A stretch of 64,000 nucleotides of DNA from a virus (IMGVR_UViG_3300046559_000436:1-64000), one strand, 5' to 3'. Positions 44,315 to 63,668 are shown, numbered from the stretch's first letter. The notes: a model not told the origin generated them from the sequence alone. Numbers and translations are program-made.

Positions 44315-44386
44315 GTGCTGGAAGTCGTCGGCGGGACGACGCCCCCTAAACCGGGGAGACGGTGGGTTCGAGCCCCACTCAGCATA
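44315..44386 (+). ncRNA. aberrant tRNA-like RNA (loop CTAAACC)
   Basis: Acceptor GTGCTGG/TCAGCAT, D stem GTCG/CGAC, 4-bp CCCC/GGGG anticodon stem, T arm GTGGG-TTCGAGC-CCCAC. Confidence 0.55.
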
Positions 44387-44649
44387 CGAATGGTCACACC
44401 AAGTGCACTTGGCGCATTCGAACACCCCGACATACAGTGACCTCTGGTCGGATCGCGTACTAAACCCGTCCATGCTTACCCTTACGGGTCGGCGGCGTTC
44501 AGGGAGACGGGGTACCGGGATAGAGTGAACGTACTCCCGGGAAGGTGGGCCGGACGTCTGTATGCCGCAGTTTACGGGCACACGGGTAACAGTCAGAATT
44601 GCGAGACTAGAATCCGGGAGCGGGAGGGGTACCCCGCACAACTTAACAA

Positions 44650-44758
44650 GGGCCTGTAGTTTACTTGTCCGAACGAGGGGCGCCCCTCAAGTAGGTCGCA
44701 CTACCGGAAGAACGGCGGCAGAAATCCGCTGGTGCGGGTTCGAATCCCGTCAGGTCCA
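44650..44758 (+). ncRNA. aberrant tRNA-like RNA with Ala identity and a D-loop insertion
   Basis: GGGCCTG/CAGGTCC-A acceptor (G3-U70, A73), TA-GTTT..GAAC D stem with a roughly 40 nt insert, GCGG-CAGAAAT-CCGC, GCGGG-TTCGAAT-CCCGT. Confidence 0.6.
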
Positions 44759-44943
44759 CGTTGTCCAGGTCACCACGGTCGAGGAAACAACCCCTCGGAC
44801 GGATCGAGACGGACAAGCACAGACGATCGTGACCGAGTCTGTGCTCAGCAGAGAAGCGGCGCAGACAAGGGCAGGGCCGCCACGCGGGGAGCGCCTCCGG
44901 AAACGGAGGACACGAGGGATGAGACCCGCATCCAACTTAATAA

Positions 44944-45024
44944 GCCCCTTTGGCGGAATGGCAGACGCGCTGGTCTTAGGAACCAGTGTCTTCGGACGTG
45001 AGAGTTCAAATCTCTCAGGGGGCA
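44944..45024 (+). tRNA. tRNA-Leu(TAG)
   Basis: GCCCCTT/AGGGGGC acceptor, CTGGT-CTTAGGA-ACCAG, long variable arm, GAGAG-TTCAAAT-CTCTC; no encoded CCA. Confidence 0.93.
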
Positions 45025-45159
45025 CGGGACGTACAGAATGTCGGAAGTAACCGGAGTGGAACACGTCGGAGTGCGCACGATGACGTGGAAAGCAAAGGCG
45101 AGGTAAGACAATAGCGCAGAACGCCGGACGGTGTTTGTCTGCCACGTCCACCGATCACT

Positions 45160-45233
45160 GCCCCTTTAGCTCAGTTGGCCAGAGCGGCTGCCTTGTAAGC
45201 AGCGGGTCGCCGGTTCGAATCCGGCAGGGGGCT
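45160..45233 (+). tRNA. tRNA-Thr(TGT)
   Basis: GCCCCTT/AGGGGGC, GCTGC-CTTGTAA-GCAGC, GCCGG-TTCGAAT-CCGGC. Confidence 0.93.
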
Positions 45234-45399
45234 CTAGCCTGGGACCGACGGGTTCCGGGTGAGGTCGCGGGAAGGCCACCCGACGACCATCGGCTGTGCG
45301 TAGGCGCTACTGGGATGCTGCAGACCCAGGGTCGGTCCGAGTCCGGCGGTCGAGCTGAGCTAGGTGAAAGTGACCCCACCCACTTCCTCCGGTGCTCCG

Positions 45400-49859: not shown

Positions 49860-49889
49860 TTGACACAACGGCAACTGCTGTGATAAGAT
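49860..49889 (+). promoter_or_regulatory. promoter
   Basis: TTGACA-18-TAAGAT with GCTGTGA before the -10. Confidence 0.75.
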
Positions 49890-49918
49890 GGAGTCATCCA
49901 ATCAGGAGGGAAAGCACC

Positions 49919-50008
49919 GTGATCGTTTACGGCGACAGCGACAACGGTGGACTGGGTGACTCGGACGAGAACGGTCGTCCGCAGTCCCCTCGTCCACTCT
50001 GGTGGTAA
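49919..50008 (+). CDS. 29-aa peptide
   Basis: AGGAGG SD, GTG start; MIVYGDSDNGGLGDSDENGRPQSPRPLWW. Confidence 0.5.
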   Translation: MIVYGDSDNGGLGDSDENGRPQSPRPLWW

Positions 50009-50036
50009 CTGCTCAACCCGGGCGCAAGCCCGGCCA

Positions 50037-50109
50037 GCCTCTGTAGCTCAGCGGATAGAGCGAGACCCTTCTAAGGTCGAGGTCGCAGGTTCGAATCCTG
50101 CCAGAGGCG
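50037..50109 (+). tRNA. tRNA-Arg(TCT)
   Basis: GCCTCTG/CAGAGGC, GACC-CTTCTAA-GGTC, GCAGG-TTCGAAT-CCTGC. Confidence 0.93.
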
Positions 50110-50159
50110 CGCCATCGGACCCGCAAGGGGATCGAAGGGCAGACAGACAGGAGAATCAC

Positions 50160-51011
50160 GTGGGACTTCTCATTCCATTCGAAGAAGAAGAGCAGAGCAA
50201 GTACAAGATCGTCGTCCTGTACGGCGAGGTCGGTTCGGGCAAGACCAGCTCGTCGATGATGCTCGCCAATCGCGGCCGGATCATCGTCGTTCGTGCGGAC
50301 CCCGGCATGCACAAGGGTGCTCTGAAGGCCATCGGCGTCAACACCAAGAACATCCTCGTCCACCAGTTCGAGCACTTCGGCGACATCAAGGACCTCTACT
50401 GGGCCCTGAAGGAGAAGTTCGACGAGGACCCCGACTTCGCTGTTGCGATGGTGTGGGATTCGATGTCGGCCATCAACAAGAAGCTCGTCGACAACGAGGT
50501 CGCCCGTCGTCTGGAGAAGAAGACGAAGGTGATGTCCGGCGTCGACGAGTTCGAAGTTGACCGGGAGGTATACGGCAAGGTCACGGAACAGCTGCGGTGG
50601 ATCAACCGCTACTTCTTCGAGCTGCCGTGTCACCAAGTCGTCATCTCCCAGGAGAAGCAGGACAAGGACAAGAACGAGGGCACGATCTACTACCGCCCCT
50701 ACCTGTCCCCCGCGTACTCCTCCGACCTTCTCGGCGTAGCCGACGTGGTGATCAGCCAGGTTGCCGAGGTGGACGCTGACGGCGAGGTTCAGCGGTTCGG
50801 CTACACGGTGCCGTTCGAGCGCCGAGTGGCCAAGGACCAGCTGCACCTGCTCCCTGCCCGTCTGGCGAACGTGAACATGGCGGACGTGGCCGCCTACATC
50901 GAGGGCGAGATCGAGCCCGCCTCCGAGGAGGAACGCATCCTCAACCCCGAGAGGTGGCGCGAGGGCGGCGCGAAGCGACTGTCGAAGGACCAGTCGCGCA
51001 TGTCGATCTAG
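50160..51011 (+). CDS. AAA_24 / Sak4-like ATPase (recombinase)
   Basis: GGAG SD with GTG; LYGEVGSGKTS, VWDSMS, VVISQEK, AKD. Confidence 0.8.
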   Translation: MGLLIPFEEEEQSKYKIVVLYGEVGSGKTSSSMMLANRGRIIVVRADPGMHKGALKAIGVNTKNILVHQFEHFGDIKDLYWALKEKFDEDPDFAVAMVWDSMSAINKKLVDNEVARRLEKKTKVMSGVDEFEVDREVYGKVTEQLRWINRYFFELPCHQVVISQEKQDKDKNEGTIYYRPYLSPAYSSDLLGVADVVISQVAEVDADGEVQRFGYTVPFERRVAKDQLHLLPARLANVNMADVAAYIEGEIEPASEEERILNPERWREGGAKRLSKDQSRMSI

Positions 51012-51239
51012 GGGATTGCTCCTCTGGAAAGACGAGTGGTACCATGGAATTACCGGCCGCCCCGCAGTGGTGACGACGACCTGAACCCATCGGGGCGGCC
51101 GACCAAGCTCCCTGGTCTTGACCAGCTGGAAACGGCATGATAGACTGGGATCGCTCCCAAGTCCGCTGGGAGCAAGCGCGCCCGGCTTAGCAGGGCAGTC
51201 AATCAAACCGGCCGCAGGGCCAAACAGAGGAGAAACAAA

Positions 51240-51743
51240 ATGGCGAAGCTCGCTGACGACCTGGCGAACGATGTCACCAACTACGTTCCGGAGACCTTCG
51301 AGCCCATCGAGGACGGCGTCTACCTCGCCCGGCTCGAGGAGGACGTGGAGGTCAAGGTCGGCCCGAGGGGTCCGTACTGGAGCTGGAAGTTCGTCGTCCG
51401 TGAGGAGGACAACCCCGGCCTGACCCGCAAGAAGGTCACGCTCTACCACCGCACCTCGCTCTCGGCGGCGGCGGCGTTCAAGCTGCACGAGACCTTCGCC
51501 GCGTTCGGCGTCTCGGCCAACACCGACACCGAGGACCTGGTGAACACGGCCGAGCCCGCCGTCAAGGTCCACGTCGTCCAGAAGGTGGCCGAGCAGGGCA
51601 AGTACGCCGGTGAGATCGTGAACGACCTCGCCGACGGCCAGTGCCTCTACCCGATCAACAGCGATGCCAAGGTCAGCGCCGCGCAGAACGCCGCTCCGGC
51701 GCAGCCGGGTCCGGGCAAGAAGAGCAACAAGCCGCTGCTCTAA
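51240..51743 (+). CDS. single-stranded DNA-binding protein (DUF669-like)
   Basis: FEPIEDGVYLA..GPYWSWKF; follows the AAA recombinase. Confidence 0.7.
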   Translation: MAKLADDLANDVTNYVPETFEPIEDGVYLARLEEDVEVKVGPRGPYWSWKFVVREEDNPGLTRKKVTLYHRTSLSAAAAFKLHETFAAFGVSANTDTEDLVNTAEPAVKVHVVQKVAEQGKYAGEIVNDLADGQCLYPINSDAKVSAAQNAAPAQPGPGKKSNKPLL

Positions 51744-51783
51744 CCCTACCTCCTAGGCGCTAAGGGTTAGAACACTCCGCTAC

Positions 51784-51820
51784 TGAGCCCCCCTCCCAAG
51801 CTCCAGGGAGGGGGGCTCAG
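51784..51820 (+). terminator. intrinsic terminator
   Basis: CTGAGCCCCCCTCCC/GGGAGGGGGGCTCAG then TTGTGTTTGT. Confidence 0.75.
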
Positions 51821-51899
51821 TTGTGTTTGTGGCAAATCTCGTGATATAATAGGGGAGCAAGAGACGCAACCATAACTTTAACCGAAAGGAAAAGACAAA

Positions 51900-52130
51900 A
51901 TGGACAACATGATCGATCTGGAGAAGCTCTCTCAGGTGATGAGAGAGAAGGAGGTGAACGTGACCACCCTGTCCCGCAGAATCGGCCGTGACCGGGTGGT
52001 GGTCAGCGGCTGGAAGAACGGTCGTCGTATCCCGAACCTGGAGTCGGCCCTGTGCCTGGCCAAGGGCCTGGGTGTACCGGTCGAGGACATCTGCTACGAG
52101 GTCGCTCTGCCGGGTGATGAGGCGGCCTAG
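51900..52130 (+). CDS. XRE/Cro-like HTH regulator
   Basis: VTTLSRRIGRDRVVVSGWKNGRRIPNLESALCLAKGLGV. Confidence 0.85.
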   Translation: MDNMIDLEKLSQVMREKEVNVTTLSRRIGRDRVVVSGWKNGRRIPNLESALCLAKGLGVPVEDICYEVALPGDEAA

Positions 52131-52229
52131 CACTAATTGTCACGCAGGAAAATCGCGTGATAGACTAGTCTCAGAAAGACACCAGGGGGACATCGGCCCC
52201 CTCCGACACCGAGTGAACGGAGTTCCGCA

Positions 52230-54002
52230 ATGAACATGTTCGAGTCCATGATGGAGTCCCTGGGGCTGCAGGCGCGCAAGGAACAGACCGCCCTGGTCGA
52301 GTTCATCCGCACCAACCTCGCCAACGAGGAGCAGGCCATGATTCAGGCGGGCACCGGTGTCGGTAAGTCCTTCGCCGCTCTCGCCACCGCGTTCGAGGCC
52401 AACGAGAAGTACGGAATCCCGTCGCTCATCGTCTGCCCCACGAACGCCCTGATCGACCAGTACGTCAAGAAGGACGCCCCTCGGGTGGTCGAGGCCCTGA
52501 ACGAGGAGGGCAAGGAGCCCAAGAGGATCGCGCACATCAAGGGCCGCAACAACTACCTGTGTTCCGCCAGCCACGGCGCGATGCTCGACAAGAACGCCCC
52601 CAAGCTCATCAAGGAGTTCATCGAGAAGGGCGTCTTCGAATGGGCCGAGGCCGGTCTCGAAGGGTGGGGCTGCTCGGGTGACTGCGACCAGCGGATGGGC
52701 GACATCTGCGCCATCCAGGCGGCTCGCGAGTTGGCTTCCCGGGCTCACGTAGTGATCACCAACGGCCACGTGCTGGTGTGGGACCTGAAGGTCGAGCAGA
52801 TGACCGACGGGGTGGTGAACCTGCTGCCGCGAGTCGGGGCGGTGTTCATTGACGAGTGCCACGCTGTGGACGAGGTGGCCAAGAGCTGCAACTCGGACCA
52901 GATCGGCCCGAACGCGGCGGTGTACGACATGGTCCCGGGTCTGCAGAGGTGGGTGGCCCGAACCACGATGCTGATGAACCAGATGAAGCTCAACGAAGCA
53001 CCGGTCGACATCGACGCCGAACTGACGCGAATGCTCCAGGAGGCCGACCGTACGGCCGGTCGTCTGGAGTCTCAGCTCGCCGGGATGCGGGACCCTTCGT
53101 ACGCGGCGGAGGCCAAAGAGATCCGCAAGGATCTGAAGGCCGTTCAGCGGTTCATCGACTTCGCCACCGACAGCGACGACCGGTTCATCAGCACGATCAC
53201 CATCGAGCCGGGTAAGGACGGCGTGGACGTCACGCAGCTGAACCGCAAGTGCATCGACAGTTCCAGCTGGATGAAGAGGATTCTGCTGCGCCAGCCGTCC
53301 GCGCTGATCAGCGGCACCATCCCGAAGTCGCTCGGTCGCCGGATCGGAATCCCGGACGCGACCTTCGAGGACGTCGGTACTCCGTTCGACTACAGCAAGT
53401 CGGTGCTGGCCATCGGGTACGACTCGGCCAAGGACCGGAACGCGGAGGTCCGGCGCATCAAGAGCGTGGTCGACGCGGTTCTGGAGTACGCCCGGAAGCC
53501 GCACGAGGAGGGTGGCGGCGGATCTCTGGTGCTGTTCACTTCCTGGCGGGACCTGGAGGTTGTGATGCCCCAGGTGTACAAGGCCCTCAAGAAGGAGGGT
53601 CTCGACAAGAAGTGTCCGGTATGGATGCAGACCCGGGGTGACTCCGCCGAGACTCAGCGCGACCTGGTGGAGTTCAAGGAGCACGGCCACGGCGTGATGG
53701 GCGGAGTGGCCAGCCTCTGGACCGGCGTGGACGTCCCCGGCGCGGCCCTGCGCCAGGTGATCATCTACAAGCTCCCGTGGGGGGTTCCGACCCTGGAGGT
53801 CAAGGCCATCGAGAAGATCCACGGCCGTGACCCCTACGTGGACGACATGATGACCAAGTTGGTACAAGGTGCCGGGCGCCTCGTCCGTAGCACCGACGAC
53901 TTCGGTCGGGTGCTCATCACCGACAGCCGAGCCCGCCAGCTGCGGTGGCGCACCAACCCGATGAGCCGCCACATGGCGGAGTTCGCTCCGGCCAACCACT
54001 AA
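52230..54002 (+). CDS. DinG/XPD-family DNA helicase
   Basis: QAGTGVGKS, KGRNNYLC, DECH, ISGT, LVLFTSW, WTGVDVPG, QGAGRLVR; Fe-S Cys. Confidence 0.92.
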   Translation: MNMFESMMESLGLQARKEQTALVEFIRTNLANEEQAMIQAGTGVGKSFAALATAFEANEKYGIPSLIVCPTNALIDQYVKKDAPRVVEALNEEGKEPKRIAHIKGRNNYLCSASHGAMLDKNAPKLIKEFIEKGVFEWAEAGLEGWGCSGDCDQRMGDICAIQAARELASRAHVVITNGHVLVWDLKVEQMTDGVVNLLPRVGAVFIDECHAVDEVAKSCNSDQIGPNAAVYDMVPGLQRWVARTTMLMNQMKLNEAPVDIDAELTRMLQEADRTAGRLESQLAGMRDPSYAAEAKEIRKDLKAVQRFIDFATDSDDRFISTITIEPGKDGVDVTQLNRKCIDSSSWMKRILLRQPSALISGTIPKSLGRRIGIPDATFEDVGTPFDYSKSVLAIGYDSAKDRNAEVRRIKSVVDAVLEYARKPHEEGGGGSLVLFTSWRDLEVVMPQVYKALKKEGLDKKCPVWMQTRGDSAETQRDLVEFKEHGHGVMGGVASLWTGVDVPGAALRQVIIYKLPWGVPTLEVKAIEKIHGRDPYVDDMMTKLVQGAGRLVRSTDDFGRVLITDSRARQLRWRTNPMSRHMAEFAPANH

Positions 54003-54054
54003 CCCAATCGGCCCCCGCCCAGTAGAGGGCGGGGGCCCCACTATTAGGAGAGAT

Positions 54055-54258
54055 ATGAGTTACGTCAACGTCACCACTCTGAGTGAGGACTCGGTGGAGC
54101 AGCTCGGGCTGAAGAGGGACTTCGACATCGAGAAGACCCACGGCCACCAGTCGTTCGAGACCGATAGCGAGTCGCTGATGGCGGCAGCTGAGCTGATCAG
54201 TCGACTCGACAACCTCCAGAGCGGCGAGATGCTCATCGTCACGGCGGTGGGCTTCTGA
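54055..54258 (+). CDS. hypothetical protein
   Basis: AGGAG SD. Confidence 0.65.
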   Translation: MSYVNVTTLSEDSVEQLGLKRDFDIEKTHGHQSFETDSESLMAAAELISRLDNLQSGEMLIVTAVGF

Positions 54259-54557
54259 TGAGCACCACTCGGTACTTCGATCTGGGCGTGGTCCTGAGTC
54301 TGACCACGGGCAAGATGGTCACCAAGGAGGGGAGGGCTTCGGTCAAGGACCTCGTGGACTTCTTGACGAAGGACGCCGGACCCGAGGTGGTCACTCTGGC
54401 GGACCTGGTCACAGCTGCCCGCGAGAAGGTTCTGGGGCAGTATCCCGACCTGGCCTCGGCGGTCGTGCCGTCGTTCAGGACCGAGGAAGACATCTGGGAG
54501 TGGGTCGACTCCTTGAGATTCGATTATGGGGGGAAGGTGTATCTCACCGGTGTGTGA
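54258..54557 (+). CDS. hypothetical protein
   Basis: TGATG coupling. Confidence 0.65.
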   Translation: MSTTRYFDLGVVLSLTTGKMVTKEGRASVKDLVDFLTKDAGPEVVTLADLVTAAREKVLGQYPDLASAVVPSFRTEEDIWEWVDSLRFDYGGKVYLTGV

Positions 54558-54630
54558 CAACTGTGACGAAGAGAGTGACGAGAGTCGCGAGCAGCGGCGC
54601 AAAGACGACTACGAGCTGTAAGGGGCCGAT

Positions 54631-55044
54631 ATGAGCGCAACCATCCGGGATACTGGGGTCCGAGGTGTGACCGTTTCGTCGCCAGAGGGGTGGTCAGTTC
54701 CGGATGTAGCTGAGCGACTGGCCGCGCTGGCACGCCGTAGCGGCTGGGACGTGATCGATCAGAGGTGGTGGCACGACCGCCGGAAGGGGCTCCAGACGTT
54801 CTTTCTGGCCGTGGGGCGCCCTCTACGGCCCGGGGAGGTCCCCAGCTGCCCCGCTGGCCCCGGAGTGGGCTGGCAGTACCACCTCGTGTGGGAGGAGATC
54901 CCGGAGAAGGACCGCACTACGAACCACCGGTCCAGGATGACCATCCGGGTGAGCCGTGCGTACACTCCGAGCACCGGCAAGTGGCAGAACGGCCCCGCGA
55001 TAAAGGTGATCAGCGACACCATCACTCGCAACCCGGCTCGCTAG
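54631..55044 (+). CDS. hypothetical protein
   Basis: AAGGGG SD. Confidence 0.6.
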   Translation: MSATIRDTGVRGVTVSSPEGWSVPDVAERLAALARRSGWDVIDQRWWHDRRKGLQTFFLAVGRPLRPGEVPSCPAGPGVGWQYHLVWEEIPEKDRTTNHRSRMTIRVSRAYTPSTGKWQNGPAIKVISDTITRNPAR

Positions 55045-55046
55045 AA

Positions 55047-55076
55047 TTGTCGCAGCCGAAAACGCTGTGATAAGAT
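55047..55076 (+). promoter_or_regulatory. promoter with the AAAACGCTGTGA spacer motif
   Basis: TTGTCG-18-TAAGAT. Confidence 0.7.
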
Positions 55077-55114
55077 AGCCTCATAAGACGCTCCACTACC
55101 CCAGGAGAACAAGA

Positions 55115-55417
55115 ATGACCGACGTTACCAACGCCTACGGGCATAGGATCGGATCGCGCGGCATCACCACCCGCTCCTCTCTGCTGGATGCACTTCGGGG
55201 TCTGCTCAACCTGTACCCGGCCCACAACCTCCAGGTCAAGAACGTCACGGACATCGTCGGATGTTCTCCGGCGGTCTTCTGGACCTACTTCGCCCACCTG
55301 GATGACGCGTACCGGGCCCTGGCCGACACCGTCGGGGACGGGGATGCCCAGACGCTCTGGGCGCGACAGGTCAAGCACATCGTCAAGGTGCTGGACGAGG
55401 TCGCCGAAACCAGCTGA
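55115..55417 (+). CDS. truncated TetR-family regulator (DNA-binding domain, little ligand-binding domain)
   Basis: RGITTRSSLLDA..LL...LQVKNVTDIVGCSPAVFWTYF; only 100 aa. Confidence 0.7.
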   Translation: MTDVTNAYGHRIGSRGITTRSSLLDALRGLLNLYPAHNLQVKNVTDIVGCSPAVFWTYFAHLDDAYRALADTVGDGDAQTLWARQVKHIVKVLDEVAETS

Positions 55418-55478
55418 CGCAAGTCAACGGGGCCGACCCAATGGGTCGGCCCCACCACTGTATCCGAAAGGGAGAAAC

Positions 55479-57656
55479 ATGACCGCCACCTTCCTCGGAC
55501 GGACCCGAGTCGGAAGCACGTTCCTGCCCGAGCTGCCGCCGGACTGGCCGGTAGCGTTCGACTATGAGACCGCTGGGCTGTACCCGGACGGAGACTCCGG
55601 TACCAAGACTCAGCCCGCATCCCCGGAGGGCAGGGCGTCGGCCCTGGCCATCGCGTGGTTCGACCCCGAGACCGGCGAGCTGGTCTCACACGCCTTCCCG
55701 TTCGACCAGGGCAAGATTGCCGGGAAGCCGGGTAGGGCGATCCGGGACCCCGAGACCGGTCGACAGAGCTTCTCTCCGATCCAGGCCACCCTGGACTTCG
55801 ACAACCCCAACCTGGAACCGCAGTGGTACGTTGAGCTGATGGCCTGGCTCAGCCGTCGACGGTATCTGGTGGCCCACAACGCCAAGTTCGACATGGCGGT
55901 CGCTCGGATCGGTCTGCGTGCGGACGCAGGGGGGTTCGGCGGAGAGGAGGGCCTCGGCGGGACCGAGCTGGATCAGGAAGGGACCTACATCTATGACACG
56001 ATGCTGTCCCAGATGCTGTTGGCCCCTCTGGACATGCCGTCGCTGAAGCCTACGGCCAAGAAGCTGTGGGGTGACGACGAGACCGAGGAGCTGGAAGCCC
56101 TCAAGAAGGGGCTGAAGGCCAACGGCGTGGGGCTCGGTAAGCGATACGACCTGGTGGACTGGCCGATCCTGGCCAAGTACGCGGCCAAGGACGCCGAACT
56201 TACCATTCGCTTGCACCAGGTTCAGATGAACGCGGTCGACGACGAGATTGCGCCCCCGCTGTACGAGAGCCTGCTCGAAGACGACCTGCAGACCATGCGG
56301 GTACTGTACCGGATGGAGAAGCGCGGGCTGCCCTTCCTGAAGGAAGACGGTTTGGAGGTTGCCGAGGAGCTGCGTAAGCACGCCAAGATGGTGGCCAGCA
56401 CGATGCCATTCGATCCCAGCAAGCTCGCTCAGGCCATCCGGTTCTTCTACGGGTGGAAGTGCAGCAACTCCGAAATCAGGTCCCAGAAGTTCCTGACCGG
56501 GGACGAGCGGGACTGGTCGAAATTCCTGTGCGACAAGAGTTGCGAGGAGTGCCAGGGGAAGAACGGGCTCGGACTGGAGCCGACCAGCCGGACCGAGAAG
56601 CGCGGCGACCCCCAGCTCAATCAGGCCGAGATCGACAAGCTGGCCAAGCAGGGTCAGCCCTGGATCAAGGAGTTCCAAGAGTACGTCAGCTGCATGTCGG
56701 CCATCGCCAAATGGTACGACGGCTGGTCCCTTCGAGTGGGCAAAGACGGTCGTCTTCGGCCGGTTTTCAAGCAAGGCAAGCAGGAGACCGACAAGTCGGG
56801 CGGAGCCAAGAGCAAGGAGGGCGGCACCAAGACGGGTCGGCTGGCGGTGGAGCGGGTGCAGATCCAGGCGGTTCCCCGTAAGACGCACCTGCCCATCCCG
56901 GCCCCCCACCCCAAGAAGCTGATCCGGCCGACCAGCGGCAAGGTCGTGTGGGAATCGGACCTGCCCAACGGTGAGATGAGAATCGTCACTGTGATGTCCA
57001 ACTGCAACGCGATGTGGGACATCATCGACAAGCTGGACCGAGAAAAGGACGCCAGCGGCATTCACGGTCTGGTGTGCACCCAGATGTTCGGGTTGACACC
57101 TGAGGACGAGGATTTCCCCACCTTCAAGCAGGTGTCGAAGTGCATCGGTTTCGGGACGGTGTTCCAGTCCGGACCGCAGACCCTGGCTGACCAGGTCTAC
57201 CAGCAGTGCGGCGTGAAGTTCAAGGTTCAGGAGATGAAGGACTTCATCGCGGACTTCCGGGGTAAGTTCCCGGAGATCCAGCAACTGTCCGACCTGGCGG
57301 TGAAGAAGGCCGATCAGTGGCGCGGGCTGGGTTACGTCACACTGATCAACGGTCGCAACCGTTGGTTCGAGCCACACGAGCGGGTGGCCACCTGCGCGAT
57401 GTCGTCGGTTATTCAGGGTTCGCTCGCTGAGACCATGAAGACGTCCATGCGACAGGTGGAGGCTACTTACCCGGGCATCCTGATCAACCAGGTACACGAC
57501 TCGGTATGGGTGGAGGTGGACGACAGCCCGGAAGGCGAGGCGCTGGCTTGGGACGTGGCGCGGATGGTTCAGAACACCTTCGAGGAGACGTTCGACGTAC
57601 GCGAGCGACCCCGGATGAAGTTCCCGGTGACTCCGGAACGGCTTGACCTGAAGTGA
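55479..57656 (+). CDS. family A DNA polymerase with 3'-5' exonuclease
   Basis: ExoI FDYET, ExoII HNAKFD, ExoIII YAAKD; TGRL, motif A SDLPNGEMR, motif B K.IGFG, motif C QVHDS. Confidence 0.92.
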   Translation: MTATFLGRTRVGSTFLPELPPDWPVAFDYETAGLYPDGDSGTKTQPASPEGRASALAIAWFDPETGELVSHAFPFDQGKIAGKPGRAIRDPETGRQSFSPIQATLDFDNPNLEPQWYVELMAWLSRRRYLVAHNAKFDMAVARIGLRADAGGFGGEEGLGGTELDQEGTYIYDTMLSQMLLAPLDMPSLKPTAKKLWGDDETEELEALKKGLKANGVGLGKRYDLVDWPILAKYAAKDAELTIRLHQVQMNAVDDEIAPPLYESLLEDDLQTMRVLYRMEKRGLPFLKEDGLEVAEELRKHAKMVASTMPFDPSKLAQAIRFFYGWKCSNSEIRSQKFLTGDERDWSKFLCDKSCEECQGKNGLGLEPTSRTEKRGDPQLNQAEIDKLAKQGQPWIKEFQEYVSCMSAIAKWYDGWSLRVGKDGRLRPVFKQGKQETDKSGGAKSKEGGTKTGRLAVERVQIQAVPRKTHLPIPAPHPKKLIRPTSGKVVWESDLPNGEMRIVTVMSNCNAMWDIIDKLDREKDASGIHGLVCTQMFGLTPEDEDFPTFKQVSKCIGFGTVFQSGPQTLADQVYQQCGVKFKVQEMKDFIADFRGKFPEIQQLSDLAVKKADQWRGLGYVTLINGRNRWFEPHERVATCAMSSVIQGSLAETMKTSMRQVEATYPGILINQVHDSVWVEVDDSPEGEALAWDVARMVQNTFEETFDVRERPRMKFPVTPERLDLK

Positions 57657-57797
57657 CCAGCCCCTAGCGGGCCAGATCACCCCGCTGACCCCCGGAGGGC
57701 CTACAGTATGGGCATTGCTCCGGGGGAAAGCATGGTAGTACAATGGTGGTACACGGTGGGGCACGCGGCCCCACCCCGAACCCGAGAGGGAGTGATT

Positions 57798-57974
57798 ATG
57801 GACAGCAGATGGACCACGAAGGATGACCTGGACGCGGCTTTCTACGGGATCGTGGGGCCGCAGGTCAACCGCATCGTTAGCATCAAGATCAGCGGTCTCA
57901 TGAAGATCAGCGCGGCGGGCGGCCCCAGGCCGGACACCCGAGTGCCGGTGATGGTGGGTCAGCTGTGGAGATGA
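57798..57974 (+). CDS. hypothetical protein
   Basis: GGGAG SD after promoter TTGCTC-18-TACAAT (57715-44). Confidence 0.55.
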   Translation: MDSRWTTKDDLDAAFYGIVGPQVNRIVSIKISGLMKISAAGGPRPDTRVPVMVGQLWR

Positions 57975-58465
57975 CCAGCAAGGACGTCAAGGGAAAGACC
58001 ACGGGCGTGCAGACCGAAGTGACCCTTCCGGTCAATCTGACCTTCAGCTATGATCCTGAGGACCCCTTCGCGTTCTACATGAAGTTCAACCCCAGCCGTT
58101 TCAATGAAGAGGTCCAGTGGGTGGGTTCCCTGGACCTCCTGCGCCAGGGTGTTCACGCTCCGGCCGGTCTTGCCGACATCCAGGTCTACCCAATCGACAA
58201 GGGTCAGATCGCGATTCGGCTCGAAGCCGAGGTAGGCCATTCGACCACCCGAGTGGCGGCCAAGGACATCAAGGCGTTCATCAGCGCCATCGACGAGGAG
58301 GAATCAGTGTCCAGTGTGACGATCGGTGAGGCGGTCGAGATTACTCTGGAGCAGTTTCTGGAGGATCTCGGCCTCTACCCCTATGACAACGGCCCGTCTC
58401 TCCCGCCGGGGTGGTGCCCGAACTGTATGCGAGTCCACTCCGGCAACGGATGCGGTGACGCCTGA
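57971..58465 (+). CDS. SsgA-like (SALP) sporulation/cell-division protein
   Basis: FSYDPEDPFAFYMKF..VQWVGSLDLLRQG..PAGLADIQVYP..IRLE....G..AFI matches the SsgA/SsgB pattern. Confidence 0.8.
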   Translation: MTSKDVKGKTTGVQTEVTLPVNLTFSYDPEDPFAFYMKFNPSRFNEEVQWVGSLDLLRQGVHAPAGLADIQVYPIDKGQIAIRLEAEVGHSTTRVAAKDIKAFISAIDEEESVSSVTIGEAVEITLEQFLEDLGLYPYDNGPSLPPGWCPNCMRVHSGNGCGDA

Positions 58466-58692
58466 TGGGCTGGGGCAGCGCGGGGGCGACGATCTTCGAC
58501 CCTACGATCGAGGCTCTGGTCAAATCCGGGACCACTGACGAGGTGCTGTTCGACACGGCGGTGAACCTCATCAACAACCTCCAGAGCGAGGACTGGGACA
58601 CCGAGGGAGAGTCCCTGGATCACTTCAAGGACAATCCGGTGATCGTCCGGGCGTTCGCCAGCCTCGGAATCCGGTTGCACCACAGCACCTAG
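58465..58692 (+). CDS. hypothetical protein
   Basis: MGWGSAG..DWDT motif; TGATG coupling. Confidence 0.65.
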   Translation: MGWGSAGATIFDPTIEALVKSGTTDEVLFDTAVNLINNLQSEDWDTEGESLDHFKDNPVIVRAFASLGIRLHHST

Positions 58693-58694
58693 TA

Positions 58695-58724
58695 TTGATC
58701 CGCAGCAAAACGCTGTGATACAAT
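58695..58724 (+). promoter_or_regulatory. promoter (leaderless) with the AAAACGCTGTGA motif
   Basis: TTGATC-18-TACAAT; ATG at 58731. Confidence 0.7.
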
Positions 58725-58730
58725 TGTCCT

Positions 58731-59228
58731 ATGGTCAGGACAGTGAACGTAGGTAGAGCGGCGAATGACAAAGTCGGGGTCCCCGAGGGGCAATGGGTCT
58801 CGGTGGACCCCGGCGACATTCACGTCGGGGTATGCTTCTGGAACGGCCCCGAGCCGCAGTGGGCCAGGGAATTCCGGCCAGACCAGTTCGTAGACTGGCT
58901 CGTGGATCAGATGCAGGCCGGTGAGATCGAGCTGGTCGTGTACGAGATCTTCATGCTTTATGGTCAGAAAGCACACCAGCAGACAGGGTCCACCTTTGGG
59001 ACCGCTGAATTGATAGGCGTCATGCGTCACTTGTGCCGAAGGGCGGAGGTGCCGTTTGTGGGCTATCAAGCCAGCGCCCACAAAGGTCTGTACAAGTGGG
59101 AGAAGTTCAAGCCACCGCACAAATCTTTGAGAGACTGGGTCAGCTACGGGCACGGTTCGCACACGAAAGACGCAGAATGCTGCGGCTTTTACCACCTGAT
59201 CAAGAATGGAGTGATTAAGAATGGCTGA
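58731..59228 (+). CDS. RuvC-like Holliday junction resolvase
   Basis: VSVDPG..VG, LVVYE, ELIGV, HTKDA. Confidence 0.75.
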   Translation: MVRTVNVGRAANDKVGVPEGQWVSVDPGDIHVGVCFWNGPEPQWAREFRPDQFVDWLVDQMQAGEIELVVYEIFMLYGQKAHQQTGSTFGTAELIGVMRHLCRRAEVPFVGYQASAHKGLYKWEKFKPPHKSLRDWVSYGHGSHTKDAECCGFYHLIKNGVIKNG

Positions 59229-59571
59229 GAAGGCGCCTTTCAAGAAGAGCGGCGGGCTGTGGCACTCCCCCCCGAAGGAGAAGGACCTGAACAACCCGGA
59301 TGTCCCTGTCCACAAGCGGCCCACGCTTGAGTGGCGCGAGGTCAAGGAGTGGCGTGAGACCATGCTGGTGATCGGCCAGCAGCGCGGTCGGTCGGCGGCC
59401 TTCTTCCTGCTGTGCGGGGGCGGCGGGGCTGGCACGGACAGCTACCCGATGTTCATGTCGGACGCCACCGAGATGATGAAGACGGCGACCATCGTTCAGG
59501 GGACCGTCACTGGTCGTTGGACCATCGTCAAGAAGGGTCAGAACTACGGGCTGAAGTACCTGGGAGAGTGA
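59221..59571 (+). CDS. hypothetical protein
   Basis: GGAG SD; KKGQNYGL C-terminus. Confidence 0.65.
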   Translation: MAEKAPFKKSGGLWHSPPKEKDLNNPDVPVHKRPTLEWREVKEWRETMLVIGQQRGRSAAFFLLCGGGGAGTDSYPMFMSDATEMMKTATIVQGTVTGRWTIVKKGQNYGLKYLGE

Positions 59572-59574
59572 AAG

Positions 59575-60054
59575 ATGGGTGGGAATCAGTACGTGAGGTT
59601 CCTGATCAAGGACGCAGCGGCGAAGCTCGACGAGGTGGTCCACGCTCTAGGGACCATCCAGTCGGACTTCGCTCAGGCAGGTGAGGTATCTGCCTCGCAT
59701 CGGGCCACGAAGCTGGCAAACGACGTCATAGCGTACAAGGAGTCATTGATGAGCAAGATCGGCGATGAGCTTGGCGGCGAGGTGGTGGAGAAGATGCGCC
59801 AGGCCACTGGGGCCAAGCCCAGACCGCAGCGGCCCTGCATGTTCTACCTGATGCGCAAGCACGACCACTCCGGTGTGAGTGGCACGGGGGTGGTGGCCGA
59901 GGGTATCGAGTTCTCGGACGGCCGGGTGGCCATGCGATGGGTGACCCGGATGGCAGGATCGACCTGCACCTACGACTCGATTGACGATGTGATCGAGATC
60001 CATGGTCACGGCGGAAGCACGGAGGTGATCTATGGCCGACCTGGCCGGGATTAA
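59575..60054 (+). CDS. conserved actinophage hypothetical protein
   Basis: SGVSGTGVVAEGIEFSDG..IHGHGGST. Confidence 0.65.
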   Translation: MGGNQYVRFLIKDAAAKLDEVVHALGTIQSDFAQAGEVSASHRATKLANDVIAYKESLMSKIGDELGGEVVEKMRQATGAKPRPQRPCMFYLMRKHDHSGVSGTGVVAEGIEFSDGRVAMRWVTRMAGSTCTYDSIDDVIEIHGHGGSTEVIYGRPGRD

Positions 60055-60178
60055 GGAGCTGGTCGTGACGGTGTGCGACGCGTTCGGGATCACTCGGGAC
60101 GAGTTTCTGAAAATCGTCAAAGAAGAGGCCGAAGATATGGGCCTCACGATTCTGGAAGAGGTGCTGGCGCAATGTTGA
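60032..60178 (+). CDS. hypothetical protein (48 aa)
   Basis: GGAGG SD; MADLAGIKELVVTVCDAFGITRDEFLKIVKEE... Confidence 0.55.
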   Translation: MADLAGIKELVVTVCDAFGITRDEFLKIVKEEAEDMGLTILEEVLAQC

Positions 60179-60744
60179 ACTCTGATGTGATGGCGTGGGG
60201 GTCCCTGGTCACCTGCGTCACAACGTACGTCGGGTACCAGGCAGGGTCGTTGAAGGCCCGGGTCGTGGCGGACCGGGAGTACCGGGACCCCGAGACCGGG
60301 ATGCTGACTCGGAAGGGCTTCGAACATCGCGCCCTGAAGATGCTGGCCAAGAGCTGCAACTACATCGTGGTGATGGTCGACCTCAACGACCTGAAAAAGG
60401 TCAACGACGAGTTCGGCCACGCGGCGGGCGACATGTTCATCCGCGAGCAGGCTGGTCGAATCAGTGACTGGGCCCGTAGGAAGAACGGGGTGGCGGCCAG
60501 GCTCGGCGGGGACGAGTTCGTGGTGATCGTCACCGGCTCTGCCGACACCACGGCGCTCAAGGAAGATCTGAACCGACCGATCTGCTGGGAGGGCGAGACC
60601 AGGTACTGGACCGCCAGCGTCGGATTCTCCTGGATCTCGATCGGGGTGCTCAAGAGCGACCGGAAGAACTGCCTGTCCAAGGCTCTCGGCAAGGCTGACC
60701 AGGACATGTACAAGAACAAGGGCGAGGGGCGCAGCCGCCGCTAG
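60172..60744 (+). CDS. GGDEF diguanylate cyclase
   Basis: DPETGMLTR, VDLNDLKKVNDEFGHAAGD, ARLGGDEF, ASVG, ADQDMY..K. Confidence 0.9.
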   Translation: MLNSDVMAWGSLVTCVTTYVGYQAGSLKARVVADREYRDPETGMLTRKGFEHRALKMLAKSCNYIVVMVDLNDLKKVNDEFGHAAGDMFIREQAGRISDWARRKNGVAARLGGDEFVVIVTGSADTTALKEDLNRPICWEGETRYWTASVGFSWISIGVLKSDRKNCLSKALGKADQDMYKNKGEGRSRR

Positions 60745-60774
60745 TTGCGCCAGCGCAAAACGCCGTGATAAAAT
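60745..60774 (+). promoter_or_regulatory. promoter with the AAAACGCCGTGA motif
   Basis: TTGCGC-18-TAAAAT. Confidence 0.65.
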
Positions 60775-60817
60775 AGTCTCAGACGCCGGAGGGTCCGGCG
60801 GTCGGAAGGAGCACGGG

Positions 60818-61120
60818 ATGGCGCGGTTCAAGGTCGAGGTCGAGGTGTCCAGCCGAGGTCTGGCGGTGGACGTCGAGCACGGCATCCGGGAGATCCTGTC
60901 GGATCACAACTACAACCCGCAGAACCTGCAGGTGAAGACGATGCCGGAACCGACGCGGCTGGCGGACTTCCCGTCGCAGAACGTCCGGCGACGGATCGGG
61001 GACGAGACCTACCGGGTGGTGATTCCCGGCCTCTTCAAGGAGGGCAGGGAGGTCACGGTCCCCATCTGGGAGACGGACGTCGACCTGGAGCTGCTGGACC
61101 ACTACCTCAACGGCGGCTGA
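60818..61120 (+). CDS. hypothetical protein
   Basis: AAGGAG SD. Confidence 0.65.
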   Translation: MARFKVEVEVSSRGLAVDVEHGIREILSDHNYNPQNLQVKTMPEPTRLADFPSQNVRRRIGDETYRVVIPGLFKEGREVTVPIWETDVDLELLDHYLNGG

Positions 61121-61211
61121 CGAAAGCCGGATGCGGGGGGTCGATCTCTCAAATGTGAGGGGTCGACCCCCTGGGTCTTACTTTCCGAACAGACCTAAGA
61201 GGAGACAGAAG

Positions 61212-62408
61212 ATGACCGGGAAGTTGATCGTCGTAGCGGACGGGTTCTACGGAAGCTGCGGCAAGGGCCACGTCACCGAGATGCTGTTGAACTCGGACGA
61301 CAGCCTGGTTCAGGCGAACGTTCGAGTGGGCGGCCCGAACGCAGGGCACATCGTGTACGGGCCGCAGTGCCCGAGCTGGTGCGGGATCGGCGACGAGGGC
61401 CCGAGCGATGTCCCGTGGGGGGCGGAGCCCGAGGAGGACCACCTCGTGGTGGGCGGAATCCGTCTGCACCCCTGGAAGCTGCGTCAGGTGCCGGTCGGGG
61501 CGGTAGTGAACCACTACTGCAAGTTGGTGATCGCGGCCGGGTCGGAGATCCACCTGCCGACGCTGCACGAGGAGATCAAGGCGCTGGAGGACGCTGGCCA
61601 CCGCGTCATCAACCGGCTCTACATCGACTCGGCGGCTACGGTTCTGACTGAGCGTCACAAGGAGCAGGAGAAGCACCGCGACCTGACCGGCAAGCTCGGT
61701 TCGACGGCCAAGGGGATCGGCGCCGCTCGGGCGGACCGGATCTGGCGGACGGCGGAGACCTGGGGCGAGCACGTCAAGGACCACAACGATTCCCAGTGGA
61801 CGACGGACAACACGGCGGACTACCTGTACCAGCTGATGAGCCGGGCCGGTGGCACGGTGATCATCGAGGGCACCCAGGGGTTCGGGCTGGGTCTGCACAC
61901 CGAGAACTACCCGCAGGTGACCAGCACGGATTGCCGGGCGGTGGACTTCCTGGCACAGGCCGGACTGTCGCCCTGGCACAAGGCGGTCGAGAAGTTCGAA
62001 CCGTGGGTGGTGCTGCGGACCAGGCCGATCCGGGTGGCCGGGAACAGCGGCCCGATGAAGGGTGAGACCACCTGGGAGGAGATCGGGCTTCGGCCCGAGA
62101 AGACCACGGTCACGCGGAAGGTGCGCAGGGTCGGCGAGTTCGACGCCGGGCTGGCGAACCGGGCGATCGACGCCAACGGCGGTCACAACGTGGCCAGGGT
62201 GGCGCTCACGATGGTGGATCACGTGATCCCGGAGCTGGCGGGGGCGGACTTCATCGAGGACCTGACGCCCGAGGTGGTGACGAGGCTGAAGGGGTTCATC
62301 GAGGACATCGAGATCAAGCTCAGCGGCCAGGTGATCAGCTGGGTGGGGACGGGGCCGGACACCGGACTGTGGCTGGTGGACGAAAAGGGCGACCGACTGC
62401 CCTGGTGA
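61212..62408 (+). CDS. purZ: PurZ/PurZ0-like N6-succino-2-amino-dAMP synthetase (adenylosuccinate synthetase family)
   Basis: DGFYGSCGKG (Ser in place of the PurA Asp), GGPNAGH, GSTAKGIG, EGTQG, YPQVTS, RTRPIRVAGNSGP, TTVTRKVRRVGEFD, LTMVD, GTGP. Confidence 0.8.
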   Translation: MTGKLIVVADGFYGSCGKGHVTEMLLNSDDSLVQANVRVGGPNAGHIVYGPQCPSWCGIGDEGPSDVPWGAEPEEDHLVVGGIRLHPWKLRQVPVGAVVNHYCKLVIAAGSEIHLPTLHEEIKALEDAGHRVINRLYIDSAATVLTERHKEQEKHRDLTGKLGSTAKGIGAARADRIWRTAETWGEHVKDHNDSQWTTDNTADYLYQLMSRAGGTVIIEGTQGFGLGLHTENYPQVTSTDCRAVDFLAQAGLSPWHKAVEKFEPWVVLRTRPIRVAGNSGPMKGETTWEEIGLRPEKTTVTRKVRRVGEFDAGLANRAIDANGGHNVARVALTMVDHVIPELAGADFIEDLTPEVVTRLKGFIEDIEIKLSGQVISWVGTGPDTGLWLVDEKGDRLPW

Positions 62409-62468
62409 GGTAAGACCTGGGGCGGCTCCGGACGAGGAGCCGCCCCGTTCAGTAGAAGGAGCAGGGAA

Positions 62469-63050
62469 ATGACGCAGTTCGAAGAGATGGCGGGTCCGAT
62501 CGAGGTGGACGGCGTGCAGATCGCCGACCCCAAGGTTTCGGACTTCTTCAAGAGCGGGTTGAGGTTCGTCCGGACGGAAGGTCAGCCGGACGGTAGCGTG
62601 AAGTACTTCAGCGAGAAGACGCCGGACCCGCTGACGGCGTTCTCGGGGGCCACGCACATGATCAGCAAGGAGGAAGCCGTGGATCAGCTGGGGTTGACCA
62701 AGGAGAGCGACGAGACGACGGAGAGGATCGCCGACCTGAAGGAGTGGTGGGTGGAGATGGCGTCCATGGACGTCGGGATGGTCGCCGAGAAGGCGGTGAC
62801 GTACGGCAGCAACTCGCTGGAGCAGCTCGGTCGCAAGATGGCTCAGCTGGGCGGCCGGAAGGTGGTCAGCAGCGAGGAGGCGCAGGAGCTGGGCTGCTGG
62901 GTCTACCTGACCGGCAAGGTAGAGCGCTGGACCGACGCGGTGATGCGGGGGGAGCGCCCGAAGGACGACACTCTGACGGACATCATCGCGTACGCCACGA
63001 TGGCCACGCGCATCCGTCAGGCCGGGGGGTGGCCGGACAGCCGGGGGTAA
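62469..63050 (+). CDS. all-alpha NTP-pyrophosphatase-like / nucleotide-modification-associated (Nmad1/DUF1599-like) protein
   Basis: KAVTYG..GKVER..DDTLTDIIAYATM; directly after purZ. Confidence 0.6.
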   Translation: MTQFEEMAGPIEVDGVQIADPKVSDFFKSGLRFVRTEGQPDGSVKYFSEKTPDPLTAFSGATHMISKEEAVDQLGLTKESDETTERIADLKEWWVEMASMDVGMVAEKAVTYGSNSLEQLGRKMAQLGGRKVVSSEEAQELGCWVYLTGKVERWTDAVMRGERPKDDTLTDIIAYATMATRIRQAGGWPDSRG

Positions 63051-63130
63051 TTGCGCCGGAGTAAGACCCGGGTGTAGGATAGGGATATCGCCGGGGGGAC
63101 AACCTCCCGGCTCTCCCGAAAGAAGAGGCG

Positions 63131-63565: not shown

Positions 63566-63572
63566 CGCAAAC

Positions 63573-63606
63573 CGGGGCCCCCTGTGACACAAGACACAGG
63601 GGGCCC
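63573..63606 (+). terminator. stem-loop terminator
   Basis: GGGCCCCCTGTG/CACAGGGGGCCC. Confidence 0.65.
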
Positions 63607-63668
63607 TGTTGTGTGGGAACAAAAGAGTGATATACAATTGTCATAGAGACAACAAGAAGGAGGCAGTG

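Follow-up and report, generated by a model that had tools for sequence, protein, structure and literature searches.

An uncultured soil phage carries, interleaved with its replication genes, a set of three small genes that on a narrow balance of probability acts on host development through an unregulated cyclase, an SsgA-like protein and a TetR-type domain. As judged from homologous proteins, the set is conserved in the diverged relatives of the phage, and it would probably keep the host from escaping into spores. The window analyzed here consists of the first 64 kb of the phage genome, which measures approximately 96 kb and was recovered from a rhizosphere metagenome. The features of the region are the following:

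52230-54002: helicase, a replication gene
55047..55076, + strand: promoter copy (TTGTCG, 18-nt spacer, TG-extended TAAGAT) heading the TetR-like, PolA, ORF88, SsgA-like and ORF75 unit
55115..55417, + strand: TetR-type DNA-binding domain, 100 aa, without the C-terminal ligand/dimer domain (by homology)
55429..55453, + strand: GC-rich hairpin between the TetR-like gene and PolA, with an 11-bp stem, an AAT loop and no T run (read directly from the sequence)
55479..57656, + strand: family A DNA polymerase PolA, 725 aa from ATG, with a GGGAG ribosome-binding site (PF00476, phrog_17)
57708..57974, + strand: 88-aa ORF without assigned function, its stop overlapping the SsgA-like start (ATGA), with a sub-threshold DUF6409 match only
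57971..58465, + strand: SsgA-like protein, 164 aa (PF04686)
58465..58692, + strand: 75-aa ORF, its start overlapping the SsgA-like stop (TGATG), with no family matched
58695..58724, + strand: promoter copy (TTGATC, 18-nt spacer, TACAAT) heading the RuvC-like, ORF116, ORF159 and GGDEF unit
58731-59228, + strand: possible RuvC-like resolvase (phrog_5202 and a weak phrog_159 match)
59221-59571 and 59575-60054, + strand: two phage proteins without assigned function (phrog_18619, phrog_7499), 5' of the cyclase
60172..60744, + strand: minimal, sensor-less GGDEF diguanylate cyclase, 190 aa (PF00990, TIGR00254; the source's own gene call)
60745..60774, + strand: promoter copy (TTGCGC, 18-nt spacer, TAAAAT) heading the PurZ unit and marking the end of the cyclase unit
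61131..62408, + strand: PurZ, succino-amino-deoxyadenylate synthase, a 2-aminoadenine genome marker (NCBIfam NF038379, 320.5 bits against a cut-off of 300)

The phage genome encodes a PurZ (2-aminoadenine) pathway. Its PurZ is 49% identical to that of Hiyaavirus, and its PolA shares 37% identity with its counterparts in the Streptomyces phages Hiyaa, Keanu and Spocter; on these two proteins the phage is a distant relative of the Streptomyces Hiyaavirus phages. Since the closest phages in both comparisons infect Streptomyces, we infer a Streptomyces-type host, although the phage GC content of 61.7% lies far under typical Streptomyces values. Beyond the possible RuvC-like resolvase listed above, no integrase or resolvase was found in the phage, and the bearer of the three-part set would be a virulent Streptomycetaceae phage.

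An earlier note on this DNA had described three host-type regulators interleaved with replication genes, and this arrangement was borne out, with all three genes lying on the + strand where it had placed them and the helicase, PolA, the weak RuvC-like gene and PurZ surrounding them. A promoter motif, TTGnnn-N18-TAnnnT with the extended -10 element GTGATAnnnT, occurs in seven exact copies between 49.8 and 76.3 kb, all of them intergenic and on the + strand, and the GTGATAnnnT core has a single further match, which is intragenic, on the - strand and without a TTG box. The replication region is, on the evidence of this motif, driven by seven sigma-70-type promoter copies. The note had also placed each regulator downstream of a phage promoter, which applies directly to the TetR-like gene, the first after promoter 55047-55076; the SsgA-like gene follows in the same unit after another 2.9 kb, past the GC hairpin and PolA, and the unit starting at 58695-58724 ends with the cyclase. 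The hairpin itself may be a partial terminator or an RNA-stabilizing element. Hairpins of similar kind were observed 3' of the helicase and PurZ genes.

The cyclase scores 87.4 bits (E 1.2e-24, cut-off 23.8) against Pfam PF00990 and 86.6 bits (cut-off 37.4) against TIGR00254, and it consists of a short, weakly hydrophobic N-terminal helix (hydropathy maximum 0.94) followed by the catalytic domain. The intact RLGGDEF motif, D70, N78, D79 and GHAAGD, which contains the guanine-reading Asp D87, are invariant in 12 aligned sequences, and the Asp and Asn that specify GTP are retained; the metal- and substrate-binding residues and GGDEF are also invariant in six members of the phage clade at 57-70% identity. 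The RxxD inhibitory I-site, which stands five residues before GGDEF and is common in the family without being obligatory, is absent, its position reading RKNG, and it is likewise missing in the Streptomycetaceae relatives. The enzyme looks catalytically competent and unregulated. In the phylogenetic tree the phage cyclases form a monophyletic clade (support 1.0) nested in a 29-tip clade (support 0.94) whose named members all belong to Streptomyces or Actinacidiphila, that is, to Streptomycetaceae only, and the family comprises short (215-227 aa) Streptomycetaceae GGDEF proteins, apart from CdgB and CdgC. The latter two, Streptomyces development cyclases acting via the BldD and RsiG-WhiG switches, share the catalytic domain, and presumably the product, with the phage enzyme, but this enzyme lacks both sensor domain and I-site and belongs to a separate family. 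No GGDEF gene was found in the cultured Streptomyces phages of the collection. Yip peptides of Pseudomonas phages are a reported precedent for raising host c-di-GMP (PMC11461919; PMC8085984); however, these peptides bind a host cyclase, whereas the present phage brings its own predicted enzyme, and the protein families and hosts are different.

The SsgA-like protein matches Pfam PF04686 with 62.9 bits (E 2.7e-17, cut-off 25), and its gene was recovered in a six-frame search (E 9e-19). In an AlphaFold model with a pLDDT of 89.8, residues ~17-109 adopt an SsgB-type fold, and a long helix and a tail lie C-terminal to it. The best Foldseek match of this model was S. coelicolor SsgB (6SLC/6SUJ; E 2e-9, TM 0.76-0.78, rmsd 2.1-2.4 Å), with Thermobifida fusca SsgB (3CM1) at TM 0.71 and SsgB matches overall at TM 0.71-0.78 and E 2e-9 to 5e-8; S. 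coelicolor SsgB was also found in a PDB sequence search (E 1.4e-11). Fold and family signature residues are thus shared with both cellular SsgB proteins, but the phage protein is only 28% and 21% identical to them, respectively, is ~20-35 residues longer (cellular matches have 123-155 aa) and carries a tail. This rare C-terminal Cys/His tail, C-x2-C-x3-H-x4-C (C149, C152, H156, C161), is invariant in all four members of the SsgA-like subfamily, is probably zinc-binding, and was found in none of the cellular or cultured-phage SsgA-like proteins examined, including one chromosomal relative. Among 1.84 billion 50%-identity representatives searched, only one other matched the whole span; cellular matches all had E-values of 2e-9 or worse and spanned only residues ~17-107. 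The protein was also considered as an orthologue of SsgA, SsgB or SsgD, which it is not (only 53 bits on the SsgD equivalog model, whose cut-off is 185; ~28% identity to SsgB), and therefore its partners may differ. With 164 aa and a tail, it also departs from the typical single-domain size of ~125-150 aa.

A phage-borne ssgA homologue and the manipulation of development by actinophages are already in print, phage Dagobah carrying likewise a member of the actinomycete-only SsgA-like family that was proposed as a sporulation manipulator (PMC7650747, PMC10117723). Unannotated SsgA-like genes are also found in Ibantik and in the ~130-kb Streptomyces phages Belfort, Comrade, TunaTartare and others. 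The SsgA-like proteins of all these phages are 27-29% identical to the present one, which alone among them has the Cys/His tail, and in tblastn searches of Dagobah, Ibantik and the ~130-kb set the cyclase and the TetR-type domain were missing.

The third gene had been called a truncated TetR, which stands as far as a real homologue of the TetR DNA-binding domain is concerned, although no Pfam TetR_N (PF00440) match was obtained at E-values up to 5, nor at the gene in the six-frame search. The homology was recognized by BLASTP to the N-terminal domain of a TetR_N plus TetR_C_38 protein (38% over 65 residues, E 5e-13), and such a match is found once per genome in 41/41 Streptomycetaceae genomes (E 1e-8 to 1e-11). 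ESM Atlas gave a feature score of 0.95 and a structural TM of 0.71-0.75 to TetR regulators, and the best PDB matches, AmtR and DesT, aligned in register. On these alignments, the nearest cellular kin are the SCO4421-type TetR_N plus TetR_C_38 regulators. The DNA-binding domain of SCO4421 aligns with the phage protein from the first residues at 33-38% identity, but the latter stops at ~100 residues without the TetR_C_38 domain (PF19352), which was found nowhere in the phage. In an S. coelicolor-like genome the host counterpart occupies the SCO4421 position next to kbpA, afsK and afsR, which all exceed their NCBIfam equivalog cut-offs, and in 4/5 Streptomycetaceae loci read it lies 3' of an SDR gene rather than of kbpA. 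Among 101 genomes sampled from the class, the subfamily was present in 13 further genomes, plus four Streptomycetaceae already searched. SCO4421 is whiA-dependent with expression confined to spore chains, and its deletion has no visible phenotype (PMC3878966). Binding to DNA may be weak in a TetR-type domain that lacks the dimer domain, and the protein could equally be a regulator of phage genes.

Relatives of all three proteins (P0008, P0003 and P0012, the TetR-like homologue P0008 being 73% identical) are each a single-contig protein on a metagenome contig of 22,863 bp, and relatives of two of the three (P0129 and P0010) each lie on a contig of 9,949 bp. Judged by equal contig size, the three appear to share one contig and the two another; at least two diverged relatives thus appear to carry the cyclase and the SsgA-like gene as a pair, which in one of them is joined by the TetR-like gene. 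An SsgA-like gene was found within 10 kb of the GGDEF gene in 0/80 other GGDEF-carrying viral loci. Therefore, this pairing would be lineage-specific and not due to chance.

How such a set might act can be outlined from host genetics. Raised c-di-GMP, like overexpression of the cyclase CdgB, extends the vegetative phase, and it also reduces the expression of ssgB and ftsZ (bioRxiv 10.1101/2020.04.24.060822), a bldN mutant host locked in vegetative growth gives large clear plaques, and a hypersporulating bldD mutant gives small plaques with fast regrowth of resistant cells (PMC10117723). The three-part set would be expressed from host-RNA-polymerase promoters alongside the replication genes; the predicted unregulated cyclase would raise c-di-GMP, loading BldD and RsiG-sigma-WhiG and keeping hyphae vegetative, and high c-di-GMP would lower ftsZ and ssgB expression, blocking the developmental escape that limits plaques. 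The SsgA-like protein, most likely a putative interfering mimic, would engage the septum-placing SsgA/SsgB-FtsZ machinery free of host control, with an effect on septa that could be blocking or promoting, and the TetR-type domain would occupy SCO4421-type operators, or the phage's own, in a ligand-blind manner. WhiB of mycobacteriophage TM4, from a different protein family and host, is a reported precedent for a block of septation by a host-type developmental regulator encoded on a phage (PMC7650747). The reading of the earlier note as host reprogramming is therefore favored by three homologues tied to Streptomyces development, a competent-looking cyclase, a recurring set and host genetics, whereas its further proposal that phage DNA is steered into spores found no support, no integrase or resolvase having been found. 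The stricter version, in which a feedback-free cyclase flooding the cell with c-di-GMP, a tailed SsgB mimic disabling or redirecting septum placement and a ligand-blind DNA-binding copy of a sporulation-specific TetR form an anti-development kit jointly locking hyphae in a phage-permissive vegetative state, is put forward only tentatively.

Other explanations have to be weighed against an action on development, and that for the TetR-like protein carries the most weight, although we still regard it as doubtful: it would be an early-gene regulator with operators on the phage itself, such as at the repeated promoters, and unrelated to host development. Phage early regions often contain small helix-turn-helix regulators, this gene comes first after a phage promoter and the hairpin follows, because of which the protein can be made ahead of PolA, and the AAAACGC spacer conserved in the seven promoter copies could hold an operator. 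However, inspection by eye revealed no palindromic operator shared by the promoters, and of the more than 20 TetR-like candidates in each host genome, one particular conserved regulator stands ~15 bits above all others as the match of the protein. It is unlikely that the three genes are unrelated accessories whose cyclase feeds another c-di-GMP output instead of a developmental block, either altering the surface glycans of the hyphae, to the detriment of adsorption by later phages, or activating the glycogen-debranching enzyme GlgX and freeing sugar for phage replication. Their division over two transcription units is in line with it, and so are the several reported outputs of c-di-GMP in Streptomyces, including GlgX (PMC9530166), and the reported control of phage adsorption by c-di-GMP-dependent surface glycans in E. 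coli (PMC8669472); the joint travel of cyclase and SsgA-like gene in diverged relatives, and its absence from the 80 other viral loci, argue against it.

A role of the GGDEF enzyme in counter-defence, with a cyclic nucleotide jamming or decoying host nucleotide-signaling immunity, would draw on the arms races over cyclic nucleotides between phages and hosts, in which GGDEF-related polymerases are reported to take part (PMC12657218). It is nevertheless very improbable, since the base-reading Asp and Asn specifying GTP are kept, PADLOC matched neither the cyclase nor its neighbors and the closest relatives are ordinary Streptomycetaceae GGDEF proteins. That the genes are decaying, functionless passengers of host origin is the least credible explanation, given that their frames are intact with third-position GC like that of adjacent phage genes, that relatives at 45-76% identity show no change in the catalytic, fold and tail residues, and that a second rhizosphere study yielded near-identical fragments, which span most of the region and contain portions of the PolA, SsgA-like and cyclase genes.

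Development in Streptomyces has recently been found to keep the spread of phages in check, and host developmental regulators such as WhiB, SsgA, ParB, FtsK and Lsr2 have copies in actinophages. To these, the present phage lineage adds a predicted self-sufficient source of c-di-GMP and ties it to an SsgA-like protein and to a shortened TetR with a link to sporulation. The three small genes can be expressed separately in S. venezuelae, which makes the override of the BldD/WhiG checkpoint and of septation by a phage a direct question, and they may give a biological context to SCO4421, a conserved regulator; the compact, predicted unregulated cyclase is also a possible tool for raising c-di-GMP in actinomycetes. 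If the anti-development kit is real, this would be the first phage to override a bacterial multicellular program with a c-di-GMP source of its own.

Three genes for host-type regulators, encoding a TetR-like protein, an SsgA-like protein and a GGDEF-domain cyclase, were described in the earlier note as interleaved with replication genes, and the plus-strand gene order bears this out, with PolA and a RuvC-like gene lying between them:

55047-55076, plus strand: promoter heading the TetR-like gene
55115-55417, plus strand: TetR-like gene, followed by a GC hairpin
55479-57656, plus strand: PolA gene
57708-57974, plus strand: ORF88
57971-58465, plus strand: SsgA-like gene
58465-58692, plus strand: ORF75
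58695-58724, plus strand: promoter
58731-60054, plus strand: RuvC-like gene and two genes without known function
60172-60744, plus strand: GGDEF cyclase gene
60745-60774, plus strand: promoter, with ORF100 and then PurZ downstream
61131-63050, together with 65963-71331 of the whole phage record (G000): full Z-base (2-aminoadenine) toolkit comprising PurZ, a 193-aa protein, a dUTPase fusion, ThyX and a PurB-like lyase

The overlaps at the ORF88/SsgA-like and SsgA-like/ORF75 junctions (ATGA and TGATG) imply that these three genes are translationally coupled. In the repeated promoter motif, TTGnnn is separated by 18 nt, within which AAAACGC is conserved, from an extended -10 element, GTGATAnnnT. 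Its seven exact copies are all intergenic and on the plus strand between 49.8 and 76.3 kb, looser copies occur at 51118 and 63051, and the copies span 49860-63080 of the window and 76307-76346 of G000, with a conserved AGTCTCAG-like stretch directly downstream. The element looks like host sigma-70-type promoters, so that the host polymerase would read the three genes together with the replication genes, and it may amount to something beyond an ordinary sigma-70 site. A 14-bp palindrome, TTGCGC CA GCGCAA, is present in the copy at 60745. Strong GC hairpins without T runs, a terminator kind common in high-GC actinomycetes, follow several genes in the window (54003-54054, 55429-55453, 62409-62468 and 63566-63608).

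The IMG/VR record comprises 97,260 bp, the window making up its first 64 kb, and has a completeness rating of 96% and a GC content of 61.7%. Since its first and last 1,150 bases (window 1-1150 versus G000 96111-97260) are 97.6% identical, the unique genome amounts to about 96 kb; either two strains contributed to the assembly of a terminal repeat or the genome is circularly permuted, and a Logan contig from the same sample measures 96,140 bp. The left half carries genes for the large terminase, portal protein, a tail tape-measure-like protein and an amidase endolysin, and the right part carries replication and nucleotide genes. The phage is probably virulent, because searches of it for tyrosine integrase, serine recombinase and WhiB genes all came back negative. 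Its genome very likely contains 2-aminoadenine, given that PurZ (61131-62408) scores above NCBI's curated cut-off and is accompanied by genes for a PurB-like lyase, ThyX and a dUTPase. The 193-aa all-alpha protein adjoining PurZ, which has a DTLTD motif and no family match, is a MazZ- or DatZ-type candidate.

The nearest cultured phages belong to the Streptomyces Hiyaavirus group (Hiyaa, Keanu, Spocter and Galactica), with identities of 37% for PolA and 49% for PurZ; in Hiyaa, the PolA-PurZ interval has hypothetical genes only. The DNA derives from a rhizosphere metagenome, and a second rhizosphere study yielded near-identical fragments that cover the greater part of the region and take in portions of the PolA, SsgA-like and cyclase genes. 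In both runs, contig depth rises over the cyclase because GGDEF domains from other organisms add to it. Megablast of the region against phage records gave no match, pattern scanning of IMG/VR returned only remote PolA matches (≤27%) and no relative of the SsgA-like protein, two metagenome pattern scans returned no close relatives, and PADLOC matched none of ten proteins of the region.

Several further genes of this phage deserve mention. An FtsK/SpoIIIE-family ATPase of 621 aa (G000 79471-81336, minus strand) is weakly similar to the plasmid transfer protein TraB; Streptomyces employs genes of this type to move DNA from one hyphal compartment to another or into spores. A polynucleotide kinase-phosphatase adjoins a T4-type RNA ligase (G000 84642-87098, minus strand), and this tRNA-repair pair suggests that the host cuts tRNAs upon infection. 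ARAGORN called four tRNAs (window 44315-45234 and 50037-50110), namely Phe-AAA, whose anticodon is unusual, Leu-TAG, Thr-TGT and Arg-TCT, the last probably a false call that sits within an AAA_24 ATPase gene. Two more genes encode a RapZ C-terminal domain standing alone (G000 64443-64868, E 1e-26) and a protein of the DUF7873 family (G000 94894-95685, E 6e-94).

The GGDEF domain match is unambiguous in both Pfam and NCBIfam. The start was placed at the ATG at 60172, since the source gene call and all relatives measure 184-190 aa, a size that also rules out an alternative GTG start at 60073. When the phage protein was aligned with five near relatives and six proteins from Streptomycetaceae, no variation was seen in GGDEF, in the metal-binding Asp or in the substrate motifs KxxND and GHAAGD. 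Because the guanine-specifying Asp is retained, the predicted product is expected to be c-di-GMP and not a mixed dinucleotide. At the product-inhibition site, RKNG replaces RxxD, and the enzyme has no sensor domain, only about 35 residues preceding the catalytic domain; a confident transmembrane helix in this N-terminus was rejected, the hydropathy maximum of 0.94 being too low. In a FastTree phylogeny of 49 of the 183 matches, rooted arbitrarily, the six phage-type cyclases formed one clade (support 1.0), nested in a 29-tip clade (support 0.94) in which every named tip belongs to Streptomyces or Actinacidiphila, the exact sister group not being resolved. No GGDEF gene was detectable in Streptomyces phages among 50,697 records searched, although viral contigs in general often carry such genes; IMG/VR has at least 261, many of them at contig ends.

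Membership of the SsgA-like protein in its family was established by Pfam, by a search of PDB sequences (S. coelicolor SsgB, E 1.4e-11) and by a confident structural model (pLDDT 89.8) that superposes on SsgB from S. coelicolor and T. fusca; the protein is not orthologous to any named paralogue. Beyond the fold, a long helix leads into a tail whose residues C149, C152, H156 and C161 are invariant. When 1.84 billion representatives were searched exhaustively with HMMER, just one other representative matched along the whole length, and the cellular SsgA-like proteins all matched residues ~17-107 only. A genome pattern scan returned one ordinary chromosomal SsgA-like gene, and the tail alone gave no usable match in the ESM Atlas. 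SsgA-like genes also occur in other phages, all of which infect Streptomyces: that of Dagobah is annotated and published (PMC7650747), and unannotated ones are present in Ibantik and about ten 130-kb phages.

The 100-aa TetR-like protein has no match to the Pfam TetR_N model, and its AlphaFold model, built on a two-row alignment, was discarded (pLDDT 49). Three lines nevertheless agree on a TetR-type domain. PDB searches put two TetR regulators, AmtR and DesT, at the top, with the helix-turn-helix of each aligned in register; the ESM Atlas returned TetR_N clusters by features (0.95) and structure (TM 0.71-0.75); and, decisively, a profile of the phage protein and its 73%-identical relative picked out a single strong match in one Streptomyces genome (E 8.8e-9; runner-up 4e-4). 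Across 41 Streptomycetaceae genomes, the profile gave exactly one such match apiece, each within a ~218-aa frame. This host counterpart comprises TetR_N plus TetR_C_38, and its alignment to the phage protein starts right at the N-terminus (38% identity over 65 residues, E 5e-13). "Truncated TetR", as the earlier note had it, is a fair label, since the phage protein stops about 25 residues past the DNA-binding domain and TetR_C_38 is encoded nowhere in the phage.

In an S. coelicolor-like genome, the host gene is divergent from the adjoining kbpA, followed by afsK and afsR, all three above the NCBIfam equivalog cut-off. From this synteny we infer that it is SCO4421, the TetR gene near afsK, which is whiA-dependent, with expression confined to spore chains, and whose deletion gave no visible phenotype (Salerno et al., PMC3878966); the protein cluster has an S. 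coelicolor entry. In four other Streptomycetaceae species it directly follows an SDR gene, amid acyl-CoA dehydrogenase and enoyl-CoA hydratase genes, so that a search of the five loci for a conserved upstream operator found no common intergenic region. The final 16 bases before the start are kept in both contexts. Of 101 genomes sampled from the class, 13 contain the subfamily in addition to four that were among the Streptomycetaceae genomes searched before, and the match thus cannot single out a host.

Relatives of the three proteins (P0008, TetR-like; P0003; P0012) were each found on one contig, always of 22,863 bp and from the same sources, and P0129 (SsgA-like) and P0010 (cyclase) each on a contig of 9,949 bp; owing to these identical sizes, the members of each group are taken as co-resident. 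No SsgA-like gene lay within 10 kb of 80 other GGDEF-carrying viral loci. The relatives diverge by 24-55% with functional residues retained, which argues for selection. Phage copies of developmental regulators, including ssgA, have been published as annotations and hypothesis (PMC7650747, PMC10117723). New here are a self-contained cyclase in a Streptomyces-type phage, a tailed SsgA-like subfamily, the cellular counterpart of the truncated TetR and, given the presumed co-residence, the conservation of the three genes together.

The cyclase could serve other c-di-GMP outputs, such as surface glycans or GlgX, or act in counter-defence, and the three genes could be mere passengers, but each of these readings explains the gene linkage less well than action on host development. 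For the TetR-type domain, binding to SCO4421-type operators in a ligand-blind manner and regulation of phage promoters instead appear about equally plausible.

A previous study demonstrated that Streptomyces hyphae stay vegetative for longer at high c-di-GMP and proceed to sporulation when it is low, with ssgB, ssgD, ssgE and ftsZ upregulated in cyclase mutants and cell-division genes downregulated in phosphodiesterase mutants (bioRxiv 10.1101/2020.04.24.060822). Phage Alderaan has also been shown to be limited by host development, forming large, clear, non-shrinking plaques on a vegetative-only bldN mutant and small plaques on a hypersporulating bldD mutant, where resistant cells regrow fast (PMC10117723). 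In a developmental role, the unregulated phage cyclase would drive the infected compartment towards a bldN-like, phage-friendly state, the best-supported step of the mechanism and one we rate somewhat above an even chance. The SsgA-like protein would then be made while host ssgB is repressed and, in view of its diverged surface and extra tail, is favoured to interfere with septum placement rather than simply replace the host protein.
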